IMG/VR virus record: IMGVR_UViG_2698536348_000006
Coordinates: 1-5,090 of that record
Length of the DNA: 5,090 nucleotides
Strand: one strand, 5' to 3'
DNA from: a virus
Lineage: Duplodnaviria > Heunggongvirae > Uroviricota > Caudoviricetes
Below the pieces are notes generated by a model that saw nothing but the letters and a program-made list of their open reading frames with translations, was not told the origin of the DNA and ran no database searches. Of this stretch, positions 1-5,090 are shown one piece after another (position 1 is the first letter of the stretch; the number at the start of each line of letters is the position of its first letter). The position numbers and the translations under genes were made by a program.

Positions 1-1755
1 GCCACGAAAGGCTTTGATGAGCAGACCCGTCGCCTGAAAGAAAACATGGGGACACTGGAGACCTGGGCGGATAAAACAGGGAAGGCATTCAAATCGATGT
101 GGGATGCCATTCTGGATATCGGTCGTCCTGAGTCCTCAGCGGATATGCTCGCCAGTGCACAGAAGGCATTTGATGAGGCGGATAAAAAATGGCAGTGGTA
201 CCAGAGCCGGAGCCAGCGCCGGGGAAAAACCGCCTCTTTTCGTGCGAACCTTCAGGGTGCATGGGATGACCGGGAAAATGCCCGTCTGGGGCTGGCAGCG
301 GCCACGCTGCAGTCGGATATGGAAAAAGCCGGTGAACTGGCCGCCAGGGACCGGGCCGAACGGGACGCATCACAGCTGAAGTATACCGGAGAGGCGCAGA
401 AGGCGTATGAGCGTCTGCTGACGCCGCTGGAGAAATATACCGCCCGTCAGGAAGAACTGAATAAGGCCCTGAAAGACGGGAAAATCCTGCAGGTGGATTA
501 CAACACGCTGATGGCGGCGGCGAAAAAGGATTATGAATCGACGCTGAAAAAGCCGAAGTCGTCAGGAGTCAAAGTGTCAGCCGGTGAGCGCCAGGAAGAC
601 CGGGCACATGCTGCCCTGCTGGCGCTTGAAACTGAGCTCCGGACGCTGGAGAAGCACAGCGGTGCGAATGAGAAAATCAGCCAGCAGCGTCGCGATTTAT
701 GGAAAGCGGAAAATCAGTATGCGGTCCTGAAAGAGGCTGCCACGAAACGCCAGTTATCTGAGCAGGAAAAATCCCTGCTGGCCCATGAGAAAGAGACGCT
801 GGAGTACAAACGCCAGCTGGCTGAGCTTGGCGACAAGGTTGAACACCAGAAACGGCTGAATGAGCTGGCACAGCAGGCGGCGCGGTTTGAACAGCAGCAG
901 AGCGCGAAGCAGGCAGCCATCAGCGCAAAAGCCCGCGGCCTCACCGACCGTCAGGCGCAGCGGGAGTCGGAAGAGCAGCGCCTTCGTGACGTGTACGGTG
1001 ATAATCCGGCTGCGCTGGCGAAGGCCACATCTGCACTGAAGAACACCTGGTCTGCGGAGGAGCAGCTTCGTGGAAGCTGGATGGCCGGGCTGAAGTCCGG
1101 CTGGGGCGAGTGGGCGGAAAGTGCGACGGACAGTTTTTCGCAGGTTAAAAGCGCGGCCACGCAGACCTTTGACGGTATTGCACAGAATATGGCAGCGATG
1201 CTGACCGGCAGCGAACAGAACTGGCGTGGTTTCACCCGTTCTGTGCTCTCCATGCTGACAGAGATTTTTCTGAAGCAGGCGATGGTGGGGATAGTCGGGA
1301 GTATCGGCAGCGCCATTGGCGGTACTTTCGGTGGTGGTGCGTCTGCCTCCACGGGGACGGCCATTCAGGCTGCGGCGGCGAACTTCCATTTCGCGACCGG
1401 GGGATTTACGGGGACGGGGGGTAAATATGAACCTGCGGGGATTGTCCACCGCGGGGAGTTTGTCTTCACGAAGGAGGCAACCAGCCGGATTGGCGTCGGC
1501 AACCTGTATCGTCTGATGCGCGGGTATGCGGAAGGTGGTTATGTGGGCGGTGCCGGAAGTCCGGCGCAGATGCGGCGGGCGGAAGGCATTAGTTTTAATC
1601 AGAACAATCACGTGGTGATTCAGAACGACGGCACCAACGGACAGGCGGGGCCGCAGCTGATGAAGGCGGTGTATGACATGGCCCGCAAGGGGGCGCAGGA
1701 TGAGATTCAGGCGCAGATGCGTGATGGCGGCGTCTTTTCCGGAGGCAGGCGATGA
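1..1755 (+). CDS. H: Phage tail tape measure protein (lambda gpH-like), 5'-truncated by window edge
   Basis: Frame 1 is open from base 1 to TGA at 1753-1755 (track ORF 46..1755 is the first in-frame ATG only). Ala/Gln/Glu/Arg/Lys-rich coiled-coil-like N-terminal part, Gly-rich segment (IVGSIGSAIGGTFGGGASASTGTAIQ...GGFTGTGG, ~nt 1290-1430) and C-terminal ...HVVIQNDGTNGQAGP...RDGGVFSGGRR match my recall of the lambda gpH C-terminus. Stop overlaps the next gene start (ATGA). Confidence 0.9.
   Translation, partial: ATKGFDEQTRRLKENMGTLETWADKTGKAFKSMWDAILDIGRPESSADMLASAQKAFDEADKKWQWYQSRSQRRGKTASFRANLQGAWDDRENARLGLAAATLQSDMEKAGELAARDRAERDASQLKYTGEAQKAYERLLTPLEKYTARQEELNKALKDGKILQVDYNTLMAAAKKDYESTLKKPKSSGVKVSAGERQEDRAHAALLALETELRTLEKHSGANEKISQQRRDLWKAENQYAVLKEAATKRQLSEQEKSLLAHEKETLEYKRQLAELGDKVEHQKRLNELAQQAARFEQQQSAKQAAISAKARGLTDRQAQRESEEQRLRDVYGDNPAALAKATSALKNTWSAEEQLRGSWMAGLKSGWGEWAESATDSFSQVKSAATQTFDGIAQNMAAMLTGSEQNWRGFTRSVLSMLTEIFLKQAMVGIVGSIGSAIGGTFGGGASASTGTAIQAAAANFHFATGGFTGTGGKYEPAGIVHRGEFVFTKEATSRIGVGNLYRLMRGYAEGGYVGGAGSPAQMRRAEGISFNQNNHVVIQNDGTNGQAGPQLMKAVYDMARKGAQDEIQAQMRDGGVFSGGRR
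1741..1745 (+). promoter_or_regulatory. Shine-Dalgarno-like GGAGG upstream of M start
   Basis: GGAGG at 1741-1745, 6 nt before ATG at 1752; lies inside the 3' end of H, consistent with translational coupling. Confidence 0.5.
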
Positions 1756-2081
1756 AAACATTTCGCTGGAAAGTGAAGCCGGATATGGAGGTGAACTCGC
1801 AGCCATCGGTGCGTGAAGTGCGTTTTGGTGATGGGTATTCGCAGCGTATGGCGGCGGGGCTGAATGCTGACCTGAAAACATACCGTGTGACGCTTTCCGT
1901 GACCCGGGAGGAGGCCCGGCATCTGGAAGCGTTCCTGGCAGAGCACGGTGGCTGGAAGGCATTTTTGTGGAAGCCACCCTATGCATACCGGCAGATAAAG
2001 GTGACCTGTGCCGGGTGGTCTGCGCGGGTCGGGATGTTGCGCGTTGAGTTCAGCGCGGAGTTTAAGCAGGTGGTGAACTGA
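1752..2081 (+). CDS. M: Phage minor tail protein M (lambda gpM-like), 109 aa
   Basis: ATG 1752 overlaps the H stop (ATGA). Protein MKTFRWKVKP...VRFGDGYSQR...HGGWKAFLWKPPY...RVEFSAEFKQVVN closely resembles lambda gpM as I recall it, same length (109 aa). Stop TGA 2079-2081 overlaps the L start. Confidence 0.9.
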   Translation: MKTFRWKVKPDMEVNSQPSVREVRFGDGYSQRMAAGLNADLKTYRVTLSVTREEARHLEAFLAEHGGWKAFLWKPPYAYRQIKVTCAGWSARVGMLRVEFSAEFKQVVN

Positions 2082-2779
2082 TGCAGGACATTCATGAAGA
2101 AAGCCTGAACGAGTCGGTTAAATCAGAGCAGTCACCGCGGGTGGTGCTCTGGGAAATTGACCTGACGGTGCAGGGCGGTGAGCGGTATTTTTTCTGCAAT
2201 GAGCTGAATGAAAAAGGGGAGCCGGTCACCTGGCAGGGGCGGGAATATCAGGCATACCCGATTGACGGCAGTGGCTTTGAGATGAACGGGAAGGGCAGCA
2301 GTGCCAGACCGTCGCTGACGGTGTCGAATCTGTTTGGTCTGGTCACCGGGATGGCGGAGGACCTGCAGAGCCTGGTGGGGGCCACGGTGGTCCGCCGCCG
2401 GGTGTATGCCCGTTTTCTGGATGCGGTGAATTTTGTGGCGGGCAATCCGGAAGCGGACCCGGAGCAGGAGCTGAGCGACCGCTGGGTGGTGGAGCAGATG
2501 TCAGAGCTGACGGCCATGACAGCCTCGTTTGTGCTGGCCACACCGACCGAGACGGACGGGGCGCTGTTTCCCGGTCGCATCATGCTGGCGAACACCTGTA
2601 TGTGGACCTACCGCTCTGATGAGTGTGGTTACACGGGCGGGGCTGTGGCGGATGAGTTCGATAAACCCACCACGGATATCCGTAAGGACAGATGCAGCAA
2701 GTGCATGCGCGGGTGTGAGATGCGCGGCATGGTGGCTAATTTTGGCGGTTTCCTTTCCATTAATAAACTTTCGCAGTAA
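2081..2779 (+). CDS. L: Phage minor tail protein L (lambda gpL-like), 232 aa
   Basis: ATG 2081 overlaps the M stop (TGATG). Protein MQDIHEESLNE...VVLWEIDL...GERYFFCNE...GRIMLANTCMW...DRCSKCMRGC...NFGGFLSINKLSQ matches lambda gpL in length and motifs, including the Cys-rich C-terminal region. Stop TAA 2777-2779. Confidence 0.9.
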   Translation: MQDIHEESLNESVKSEQSPRVVLWEIDLTVQGGERYFFCNELNEKGEPVTWQGREYQAYPIDGSGFEMNGKGSSARPSLTVSNLFGLVTGMAEDLQSLVGATVVRRRVYARFLDAVNFVAGNPEADPEQELSDRWVVEQMSELTAMTASFVLATPTETDGALFPGRIMLANTCMWTYRSDECGYTGGAVADEFDKPTTDIRKDRCSKCMRGCEMRGMVANFGGFLSINKLSQ

Positions 2780-2861
2780 ATCCCGGTTTATGACACAGAC
2801 TGAATCAGCGATTCTGGCGCATGCCCGGCGGTGTGCGCCTGCGGAGTCGTGCGGCTTCGTG
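2675..2861 (+). repeat. 187-bp L-3'end / K-5'start junction unit, copy 1 (identical to copies 2 and 3)
   Basis: Direct comparison by eye: 2675-2861 = 3970-4156 = 4565-4751 with no mismatches I could find. Spans the last ~35 codons of L, the 10-nt intergenic spacer and the first 24 codons of K. Confidence 0.85.
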
Positions 2862-2924
2862 ATAAGCACGCCGGAGGGGGAGACTGGTGTATTCCCCGGT
2901 CTACCATATCGCCATTCAGAATGA
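2790..2924 (+). pseudogene. K: Truncated tail assembly protein K stub (about 31 native codons, then unrelated sequence to a stop)
   Basis: ATG 2790 follows the L stop by 10 nt, as for copies at 4085 and 4680. First codons MTQTESAILAHARRCAPAESCGFVISTPEGE match the lambda gpK N-terminus; homology ends near 2882 and the frame stops at TGA 2922-2924 (44 codons). The JAMM HSHPGG motif present in the other K copies is absent. Confidence 0.7.
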
Positions 2925-3042
2925 CGGGACTAATGGCCAGATAGGGCCGGAGGCGGCAGGCAGCCTTGTGCAACTGATTGACCAGCGGGTGCAGGCGGTG
3001 ATGCTGTCCATGCGACGTGACGGAGGAATACTGAGTGGCTGA
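2884..3042 (+). pseudogene. 3' remnant of a second, divergent tape-measure (gpH-like) gene with no start
   Basis: Frame 1 translation ...HIAIQNDGTNGQIGPEAAGSLVQLIDQRVQAVMLSMRRDGGILSG* ending at TGA 3040-3042 parallels the C-terminus of H1 (HVVIQNDGTNGQAGP...RDGGVFSGGRR*) but is clearly a different allele. It is in a different frame from the K stub, has no upstream ORF, and is followed directly by an M homolog as at the H1/M1 junction. Left boundary approximate. Confidence 0.6.
3022..3027 (+). promoter_or_regulatory. Shine-Dalgarno-like GGAGGA upstream of M2 start
   Basis: GGAGGA at 3022-3027, 7 nt before GTG at 3035; located in the 3' end of the tape-measure remnant, mirroring the H1/M1 arrangement. 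Confidence 0.4.
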
Positions 3043-3376
3043 GATAAAAACGCTGCATCTGGTCCCGCGTGAAGGGATGCAGGTGAGTGAGAAGCCGTCG
3101 GTGGTGAGGGTGCGGTTTGGTGACGGTTATGAACAGCGCCGCCCCACAGGGCTGAATCCTCAACTGAAGACGTTTCAGGCGGTGTTCCGGGTGACGGATG
3201 AGTCAACCCGGCGCTGGCTGGAAGAGTTTTTATCGTGGCATGGTGGTTACCGTGCCTTTTTGTGGCGACCGCCGAAACATAACCGGACGGTGAGGGTTGT
3301 GTGCCGTGAGTGGAGTGTCACGGATAATGCCCGGTACAGTGATTTCAGTTGCACGATAGAGCAGGTGGTGAACTGA
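3035..3376 (+). CDS. M: Phage minor tail protein M homolog, divergent allele (113 aa if GTG start)
   Basis: ORF in frame 2 ending TGA 3374-3376, overlapping the L2 start. Shares gpM core motifs with M1 (PSV.RVRFGDGY.QR, HGG..AFLW.PP, ..QVVN C-terminus) but roughly half the residues differ. Start uncertain: GTG 3035 has an SD at proper spacing; in-frame ATG at 3077 is the alternative. Confidence 0.75.
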   Translation: MAEIKTLHLVPREGMQVSEKPSVVRVRFGDGYEQRRPTGLNPQLKTFQAVFRVTDESTRRWLEEFLSWHGGYRAFLWRPPKHNRTVRVVCREWSVTDNARYSDFSCTIEQVVN

Positions 3377-4074
3377 TGCAGGATATTCACGAAGAAAGCC
3401 TGAACGAGTCGGTTAAATCAGAGCAGTCACCGCGGGTGGTACTCTGGGAAATCGACCTGACGGTACAGGGCGGTGAGCGGTATTTTTTCTGCAATGAGCT
3501 GAATGAAAAAGGGGAGCCGGTGACCTGGCAGGGGCGGAAGTACCAGGCATACCCGATTGACGGCAGTGGCTTTGAGATGAACGGGAAGGGCAGCAGTGCC
3601 AGACCGTCGCTGACGGTGTCCAATCTGTTTGGTCTGGTCACCGGGATGGCGGAGGACCTGCAGAGCCTGGTGGGGGCCACGGTGGTCCGCCGCCGGGTGT
3701 ATGCCCGTTTTCTGGATGCGGTGAATTTTGTGGCGGGCAATCCGGAAGCGGACCCGGAGCAGGAGCTGAGCGACCGCTGGGTGGTGGAGCAGATGTCAGA
3801 GCTGACGGCCATGACAGCCTCGTTTGTGCTGGCAACACCGACGGAGACGGACGGGGCGCTGTTTCCTGGTCGCATCATGCTGGCGAACACCTGTATGTGG
3901 GATTACCGGGGAGATGAATGCGGGTATAACGGTCCTGCGGTGGCGGATGAGTTCGACAACCCCACCACGGATATCCGTAAGGACAGATGCAGCAAGTGCA
4001 TGCGCGGGTGTGAGATGCGCGGCATGGTGGCTAATTTTGGCGGTTTCCTTTCCATTAATAAACTTTCGCAGTAA
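3376..4074 (+). CDS. L: Phage minor tail protein L, second copy (232 aa)
   Basis: ATG 3376 overlaps the M2 stop (TGATG) exactly as at 2079-2083; same 699-nt length as L1. Protein differs from L1 at only a few residues (REYQ/RKYQ, CMWTYRSDECGYTGG/CMWDYRGDECGYNGP, DKP/DNP). The track's 3349 start is an upstream in-frame ATG and probably not the real start. Stop TAA 4072-4074. Confidence 0.85.
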   Translation: MQDIHEESLNESVKSEQSPRVVLWEIDLTVQGGERYFFCNELNEKGEPVTWQGRKYQAYPIDGSGFEMNGKGSSARPSLTVSNLFGLVTGMAEDLQSLVGATVVRRRVYARFLDAVNFVAGNPEADPEQELSDRWVVEQMSELTAMTASFVLATPTETDGALFPGRIMLANTCMWDYRGDECGYNGPAVADEFDNPTTDIRKDRCSKCMRGCEMRGMVANFGGFLSINKLSQ

Positions 4075-4156
4075 ATCCCGGTTTATGACACAGACTGAAT
4101 CAGCGATTCTGGCGCATGCCCGGCGGTGTGCGCCTGCGGAGTCGTGCGGCTTCGTG
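3970..4156 (+). repeat. 187-bp L-3'end / K-5'start junction unit, copy 2
   Basis: Identical to 2675-2861 (offset 1295) and 4565-4751 (offset 595). Confidence 0.85.
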
Positions 4157-4669
4157 GTGAGAACGCCGGAGGGGGAGCGGTATATCCCTTGTGTGAATAT
4201 TTCCGCAGAGCCGGAGGCGTATTTTCGTATTGCGCCGGAAGACTGGCTGCAGGCACAGATGCAGGGGGAGATTGTGGCACTGGTCCACAGTCATCCCGGT
4301 GGTCTGCCCTGGCTGAGCGAGGCCGACCGGCGGCTGCAGATAAAAAGTGCACTGTCCTGGTGGCTGGTCTGCCGGGGGGACATTCATAAATTCCGCTGTG
4401 TGCCACATCTGACAGGACGGCGCTTTGAGCACGGGGTGACGGACTGTTACACGCTGTTCCGGGATGCCTACCATCTGGCGGGAATTGATATGCCGGATTT
4501 TGAGCGTGAGGATGACTGGTGGCGCAACGGTCAGAACCTTTACCTGGACAATATGGCGGTCACAGATATCCGTAAGGACAGATGCAGCAAGTGCATGCGC
4601 GGGTGTGAGATGCGCGGCATGGTGGCTAATTTTGGCGGTTTCCTTTCCATTAATAAACTTTCGCAGTAA
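4085..4669 (+). CDS. K: Chimeric tail assembly protein K: K N-terminal ~160 aa (JAMM/MPN domain) fused in frame to the last ~35 aa of L
   Basis: ATG 4085, 10 nt after the L2 stop. Residues 1 to ~160 (MTQTESAILAHARRCAPAESCGFVVRTPEGERYIPCVNI...VHSHPGGLPWLSEADRR...DCYTLFRDAYHLAGIDMPDFEREDDWWRNGQNLYLDNMA) follow lambda gpK. From ~4565 the DNA is identical to the L 3' end, giving C-terminus ...TDIRKDRCSKCMRGCEMRGMVANFGGFLSINKLSQ* (TAA 4667-4669). The C-terminal part of gpK is missing. Appears as the tail of track ORF 3824..4669. Confidence 0.6.
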   Translation: MTQTESAILAHARRCAPAESCGFVVRTPEGERYIPCVNISAEPEAYFRIAPEDWLQAQMQGEIVALVHSHPGGLPWLSEADRRLQIKSALSWWLVCRGDIHKFRCVPHLTGRRFEHGVTDCYTLFRDAYHLAGIDMPDFEREDDWWRNGQNLYLDNMAVTDIRKDRCSKCMRGCEMRGMVANFGGFLSINKLSQ

Positions 4670-4751
4670 ATCCCGGTTTATGACACAGACTGAATCAGCG
4701 ATTCTGGCGCATGCCCGGCGGTGTGCGCCTGCGGAGTCGTGCGGCTTCGTG
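4565..4751 (+). repeat. 187-bp L-3'end / K-5'start junction unit, copy 3 (L part follows K codons, not an L gene)
   Basis: Identical to the other two copies; here the L-derived portion is fused downstream of K codon ~160 rather than ending a full L gene. Identity with copy 1 continues to 4772 (= 2882). Confidence 0.85.
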
Positions 4752-5090
4752 ATAAGCACGCCGGAGGGGGAGTGGTATATCCCTTGTGTGAATATTTCTG
4801 CAGAGCCGGAGGCGTATTTTCGTATCGCACCGGAAGACTGGCTGCAGGCACAGATGCAGGGGGAGATTGTGGCACTGGTCCACAGTCATCCCGGTGGGCT
4901 GCCCTGGCTGAGCGAGGCTGACCGGCGGCTGCAGATAAAAAGCGCACTGCCCTGGTGGCTGGTCTGCCGGGGTGACATTCACAAATTCCGCTGCGTGCCG
5001 CACCTGACGGGACGGCGCTTTGAGCACGGGGTGACGGACTGTTACACCCTGTTCCGGGATGCCTACCATCTGGCGGGGATAACGCTGCCG
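4680..5090 (+). CDS. K: Tail assembly protein K (lambda gpK-like), 3'-truncated by window edge
   Basis: ATG 4680, 10 nt after the preceding stop; frame open to the window end (137 codons). Translation MTQTESAILAHARRCAPAESCGFVISTPEGEWYIPCVNISAEPEAYF...VHSHPGGLPWLSEADRR...GVTDCYTLFRDAYHLAGITLP matches the gpK N-terminus; about 95% nt identical to 4085-4560 with mostly synonymous changes. Confidence 0.85.
   Translation, partial: MTQTESAILAHARRCAPAESCGFVISTPEGEWYIPCVNISAEPEAYFRIAPEDWLQAQMQGEIVALVHSHPGGLPWLSEADRRLQIKSALPWWLVCRGDIHKFRCVPHLTGRRFEHGVTDCYTLFRDAYHLAGITLP

Follow-up and report, generated by a model that had tools for sequence, protein, structure and literature searches.

The alternating order of K alleles in this DNA is, in our reading, an artefact of assembly: we put at about 0.94 the probability that the deposited record is a scaffold of three short-read pieces laid across two gaps of a single N each, and that the order of the alleles was produced by the assembly. 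The stretch analysed here, called the window throughout and 5,090 nucleotides long, is the whole of record CYDI01000111.1 (5,090 bp) from the draft E. coli assembly GCA_001285245.1. It holds three copies of a segment that runs from the 3′ end of the minor tail protein gene L across the intergenic spacer into the 5′ end of K. The pattern formed by these copies is real as text, and the feature is not real biology.

The description given in the earlier note, in which the two outer K copies match and the middle one differs, is borne out by alignment. Three sites distinguish the haplotypes, at offsets +72 (A/G), +74 (A/G) and +77 (C/A) from the ATG of K, and at each of them copies 1 and 3 share a SNP that is absent from copy 2. 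Translation of the K copies likewise returned the peptides that had been read from them, VISTPEGE in copies 1 and 3 and VVRTPEGE in copy 2. Copy 1 at 2861-2882 reads GATAAGCACGCCGGAGGGGGAG, with the identical string in copy 3 at 4751-4772, and copy 2 at 4156-4177 reads GGTGAGAACGCCGGAGGGGGAG; the letters of these 22-mers had been quoted correctly, whereas their coordinates had not, as the strings begin one base earlier and 2862, 4157 and 4752 mark the first variable base in each copy. The VIS haplotype together with its linked next site (…GAG-T) is intact in strain 95NR1, and the 96-nt VIS segment is matched at 99% identity or more in 593 records. The VVR haplotype with its own linked next site (…GAG-C) is present in the two other reference loci examined, and its exact 96-mer occurs in several genomes. 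The difference between the haplotypes is not chance noise, both complete haplotypes occurring in other genomes, and VIS and VVR are standing K alleles of lambdoid prophages. The unstated premise of the earlier description, that the three K copies follow one another on one continuous molecule, was not confirmed, because the deposited record has an N at 2883 and at 4564, between the copies.

The deposited record and its two masked Ns

A base-by-base comparison of the window with the deposited record revealed only two differences, at 2883 and 4564, where the record reads N and the window reads A. There is no other ambiguous base in the 5,090 bases of the record, and both Ns fall on the only two points at which colinearity with lambdoid H-M-L-K modules breaks; the chance that two random positions would each lie within 1 nt of two breakpoints is ~7e-7. 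Each join thus carries a gap character in the deposited record, and neither junction of the supposed tandem duplication is covered by unambiguous continuous sequence. The A shown at 2883 fits neither K, which reads C or T at that point in the reference loci, nor H′, which reads T. As the Ns stand exactly on both non-colinear joins, the record is a scaffold of piece A (1-2882), piece B (2884-4563) and piece C (4565-5090), whose contents are listed in Table 1. The gene at the head of piece A is cut off by the start of the contig and is annotated as a "phage tail tape measure protein" in the matching genomes. The contig is listed under two samples in the protein look-up described below, possibly as a GenBank/RefSeq pair. 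A literature search found no paper describing the GCA_001285245 / CYDI01 assembly.

Table 1. Features of the window, by piece (positions are those of the window)
Feature	Piece	Position	Strand	Basis or remark
H 3′ part, tape measure	A	1-1755	+	ORF 46-1755; called gene 1-1755; PF09718 Tape_meas_lam_C
Minor tail protein M	A	1752-2081	+	109-aa ORF; PF05939 Phage_min_tail
Minor tail protein L	A	2081-2779	+	232-aa ORF; PF05100 Phage_tail_L
K, first 93 nt (copy 1, VIS)	A, end	2790-2882	+	translation, alignment, site comparison
Gap 1 (N in record, A in window)		2883		K base 93 joined to H′ tail
H′, last ~159 nt, different tape-measure allele	B, start	2884-3042	+	complete-genome matches, annotated tape measure
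Divergent minor tail protein M′	B	3035-3376	+	113-aa ORF; PF05939
Minor tail protein L′	B	3376-4074	+	ORF list, Pfam, comparison with L
K, first ~479 nt (copy 2, VVR)	B, end	4085-4563	+	PF14464 Prok-JAB
Gap 2 (N in record, A in window)		4564		K base ~479 joined to L last ~105 nt
L, last ~105 nt	C, start	4565-4669	+	alignment; locus match in strain 95NR1
K, first 411 nt (copy 3, VIS)	C	4680-5090	+	PF14464; runs off contig end
208-nt dovetail, suffix	A	2675-2882	+	identical to piece C prefix 4565-4772
208-nt dovetail, prefix	C	4565-4772	+	second written copy of 2675-2882
Variant sites, copy 1	A	2862, 2864, 2867
Variant sites, copy 2	B	4157, 4159, 4162
Variant sites, copy 3	C	4752, 4754, 4757

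Colinearity of the pieces and absence of the joins

The locus and the joins were searched for in a reference set of 5,426 complete E. coli genomes. When the whole window was used as the query, at most ~3.26 kb of any record was matched, as three pieces, and these ~3.26 kb are the ordinary H-M-L-K locus. Taken separately, the pieces are unremarkable. Piece A (1-2882) aligns as one block over 100% of its length in 3,679 of the complete genomes, with a best identity of 97.4%; piece B, queried as 2884-4560, aligns as one block with a best identity of 98.6%; and piece C, queried as 4561-5090, aligns as one block with a best identity of 99.4% over its first 519 nt. Against the ordinary L-K locus of strain 95NR1, piece C shows 3 mismatches in 519 nt, one of which is the masked N at 4564. 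The pieces are therefore ordinary and colinear, at 97-99% identity, and only the joins are without precedent. A 251-nt query spanning join 1 reached at least 80% coverage in none of the 5,426 genomes, its matches beginning at query base 95, which is position 2884. These matches, which cover the start of the H′ stretch, have 99.4% identity and are annotated as tape measure, and the reference sequence upstream of 2884 is unrelated to K. In complete genomes the two halves of join 2 are matched separately, with ~600 nt between them and with L followed by K as usual. Searches with the window, the junction regions and the three pieces gave no colinear match to either join in the 5,426 genomes. The exact string of join 1 was also absent from IMG/VR, GTDB species genomes and JGI metagenomes, as was that of join 2 from IMG/VR.

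Comparison of the breaks with the reference loci revealed no overlap at join 1, and at join 2 the overlap is limited to CAC. Since the joined sequences share CAC at the most, the joins are neither k-mer overlaps nor homologous crossovers, and a chimera formed in a de Bruijn graph through a shared k-mer, which we considered as a possible origin, is ruled out by the same limit of 3 nt. None of the 5,426 genomes contains all of the pieces at 100% identity in separate prophages. With best identities of 97.4% for piece A and 98.6% for piece B, no one reference strain is therefore shown to carry A plus C and B as separate intact prophages. The alleles of this isolate in pieces A and B are not exactly represented among the complete genomes, although thousands of them carry the module.

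One consequence of the gap at 4564 is already present in the protein databases. The ORF that spans join 2 (4085-4669) encodes a 194-aa K::L fusion made of K residues 1-159, one codon ACN (Thr) and the last 34 residues of L. In an exact-protein look-up over ~15 billion proteins, this protein was found on a single contig, CYDI01000111.1 itself, under the entries CTX03548.1, WP_114052205.1 and UPI0006A0BF66 in nr, RefSeq and UniRef, where it is named "C40 family peptidase" or "tail assembly protein". All of these sources are NCBI-derived, with no Logan read assembly among them. The stored record shows the N at gap 2, and translation of its gene does not give the looked-up protein. Because it is found on this contig only, WP_114052205.1 is an artefactual database entry, and it shows that scaffold artefacts can seed protein databases. 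A 51-aa ORF downstream of join 1 (2887-3042) is deposited as CTX03491.1 and annotated "tail length tape measure protein"; it is no gene but a remnant of the C-terminus of H′ where piece B begins.

The dovetail, the proposed assembly history and its competitors

The match between copies 1 and 3 is part of a longer one. The last 208 nt of piece A recur with 0 mismatches, the three SNPs included, as the opening 208 nt of piece C, so that the same sequence stands redundantly at two piece ends, and piece B has no suffix-prefix overlap with either A or C. When A and C are merged across this dovetail, the product is an ordinary M-L-K locus; in 2,966 complete genomes at least 80% of it aligns as one block. 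Between pieces B and C there are 3 differing sites within the span of the dovetail and 21 further ones in the next 318 nt, and K copies 2 and 3 differ accordingly at 24 of 526 sites. Because the dovetail between A and C is exact over 208 nt, copies 1 and 3 are most likely one physical K gene, that of a first prophage, written twice.

The identity of the dovetail is, taken by itself, weak proof of one locus, as it extends over 208 nt only and 187 of these are also exactly common to piece B. The three pieces could then come from three prophages, two of which share VIS at the 5′ end of K, and copies 1 and 3 would be separate, distant genes. The VIS haplotype is common, as the 593 records that match its 96 nt at 99% or better show, and a single genome may have as many as 9 places that match the VIS 96-mer and as many as 18 that match the tail module. 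We regard this origin as unlikely, though it deserves serious consideration. The dovetail is exact from the first base of C to the last base of A, as would be expected of two read-based extensions of one locus, and the merged A+C is an ordinary locus, which makes one locus the simpler account. The choice between these two accounts does not affect the main conclusion, since the interleaving belongs to the scaffold and not to a molecule, whether copies 1 and 3 are one locus or belong to two prophages with the same allele.

Under the scaffold reading, the source is a draft genome assembled from short reads of a polylysogenic E. coli in which similar prophages are co-resident. Pieces A (H-M-L and K bases 1-93) and C (the L tail and K bases 1-411) most likely both derive from prophage 1, with the VIS haplotype. 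Piece B, which runs from the H′ tail through M′ and L′ to K base ~479, comes from a second lambdoid prophage of another H/M lineage that carries the VVR haplotype. The L-K region is nearly identical between the prophages, so that read pairs are ambiguous there, and it was there that the scaffolder chained the pieces. A read-based extension of the edges then probably wrote the shared L tail and K head at more than one piece end. With the piece from prophage 2 placed between two writings of the prophage 1 K, the outer copies match and the middle one differs. The order A-B-C had some read-pair support, since scaffolders need links to join contigs; in repeats such links are expected to be spurious.

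The form of the gaps and of the piece ends hints at how the joins were probably made. The exact repeats between pieces are 187-212 nt long, which exceeds any usual k-mer and rules out raw de Bruijn unitigs; the pieces resemble contigs that were lengthened at their ends with reads once the scaffold had been built. Where two contigs are expected to adjoin or overlap and do not, SSPACE puts in one "n". GapFiller lengthens the sequence on either side of a gap with k-mers taken from reads, and a gap is closed only when the two extensions meet at the size expected; those that stay open lie mainly in repeats (PMC3446322). That paper does not describe the single-N convention. The insertion of single Ns into scaffolds has been counted among "construction anomalies" (PMC5902842). 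A paired-end scaffolder and a gap closer such as SSPACE and GapFiller would be a plausible source of the two gaps in this record.

We also considered whether the piece ends could be branch points of the graph at allele-variable positions. The base that follows 2882 is C or T in the K alleles, and the one that follows 4563 is A or C. This is suggestive only, as VIS SNPs lie within 21 nt of the end of piece A; with VIS-specific SNPs just before that end, allele ambiguity alone does not explain why the piece stops at 2882. The end of the scaffold itself, at 5077-5090 (K offsets +398 to +405), falls in a cluster of differences between the K alleles, where copy 3 reads ...GGGATAACGCTGCCG and copy 2 reads ...GGAATTGATATGCCG. 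Such a cluster is an expected break point for a short-read assembly of co-resident prophages.

A different view would take the joins as real and the record as a prophage with partial tandem duplications of its tail genes (H-M-L-K′::H′-M′-L′-K′::L′-K), the Ns then being ambiguous calls at junctions of illegitimate recombination. It would require two illegitimate joins, one of K base 93 to the H′ tail and one forming an in-frame fusion of K residue 159 to the L C-terminus, with M-L-K partly re-duplicated. Some observations are in keeping with it: the K::L join is in frame, there is a 3-nt microhomology (CAC) at join 2 and a weak similarity at join 1 between K (GAG-TGGTATATCCC) and H′ (TCTGGTGTATTCCCC), and the scaffolder must have had some reason for the order of the pieces. 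We nevertheless consider both such a prophage and the pair of joins that it demands to be highly improbable. Both ambiguous bases lie exactly on the breakpoints (p ~7e-7) with no others in 5,090 bases, neither junction recurs in any collection searched, and the tail operon of such a prophage would have to contain cut-off parts of K and H. The "duplicated" units are, moreover, ~3-5% apart, and H′ and M′ belong to another lineage than H and M, so that this is not a recent tandem duplication. Units of one lineage that are nearly identical, as such a duplication would leave, were not found: over the 709 nt compared from the ATG, L and L′ have 33 differences, K copies 2 and 3 differ at 24 of 526 sites, and H′ and M′ are strongly divergent from H and M.

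This divergence is unevenly placed. The H tail and M (1588-2064 against 2884-3359) are divergent, and L and the 5′ end of K (2065-2882 against 3360-4177) are 95-100% identical, with the switch at the M/L boundary, a typical boundary of lambdoid mosaics. In the reference loci H is of a ~860-aa type and H′ of a ~1,080-aa type. Piece B has 24 mismatches to its nearest complete-genome relative, 13 of them in 3382-3570 and 5 in 4201-4256; this clustering fits either a fine-scale mosaicism of prophage alleles or a mixing of alleles during assembly.

The earlier note had offered two explanations for the matching outer copies, and they fared differently. In the first, three adjacent K paralogues underwent gene conversion or recombination that copied the VIS tract between the outer copies. 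That lambdoid prophages sharing a genome form mosaics and undergo gene conversion is well known, and the clustered, mosaic-like mismatches of piece B would be in line with such events. The proposal needs the tandem structure to be real, and at each join there is an N. Conversion would be expected to leave a bounded tract in diverged flanks on one replicon, whereas no base differs between copies 1 and 3 in the 208 that can be compared, which leaves no tract boundary, and both haplotypes, together with their linked downstream sites, occur as intact alleles in many genomes. We therefore abandon gene conversion between tandem copies, whose probability we judge to be close to negligible. The second explanation, that two prophage alleles were interleaved by an assembler, was essentially right, with the qualification that the interleaving took place at the level of scaffolding and gap filling, over two single-N gaps that were masked in the sequence as presented.

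Consequences and comparison with known systems

With N displayed as A, two scaffold gaps passed for real junctions, in-frame fusions and "tandem copies". A tandem K family, gene conversion among its members and a K::L fusion thus do not need explaining, and findings that rest on adjacency over 2883 or 4564 are void, among them a triplicated K, truncated K and H fragments and a K-L fusion. Other windows may carry masked Ns in the same way.

The joins resemble single-N scaffold gaps of the SSPACE/GapFiller type in several respects: an N stands at each non-colinear join, the sequences on either side have no overlap, the flanks are normal, a 208-nt repeat is found at two piece ends, and the joins lie in a prophage repeat present in multiple copies. 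Within the pieces, the DNA resembles the lambda-type H-M-L-K tail module of E. coli lambdoid prophages, whose K is a JAB/MPN plus NlpC/P60 protein ("C40 peptidase"), in gene order, gene sizes, overlapping start and stop codons and Pfam families, with PF09718, PF05939, PF05100 and PF14464 in order within pieces A and B, and the pieces are 97-99% identical to annotated prophage loci of thousands of E. coli genomes. Once the two artificial joins are removed no biological difference from such modules is left; what the record then contains is two H/M lineages with near-identical L and K. Near-identical L-K beside divergent H/M, with clustered differences, is also the picture known from the mosaicism of co-resident lambdoid prophages, for example in O157/O26/O111 STEC. 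That mosaicism differs from what had been proposed for this DNA in being a population-level background and not evidence of conversion among three tandem K copies.
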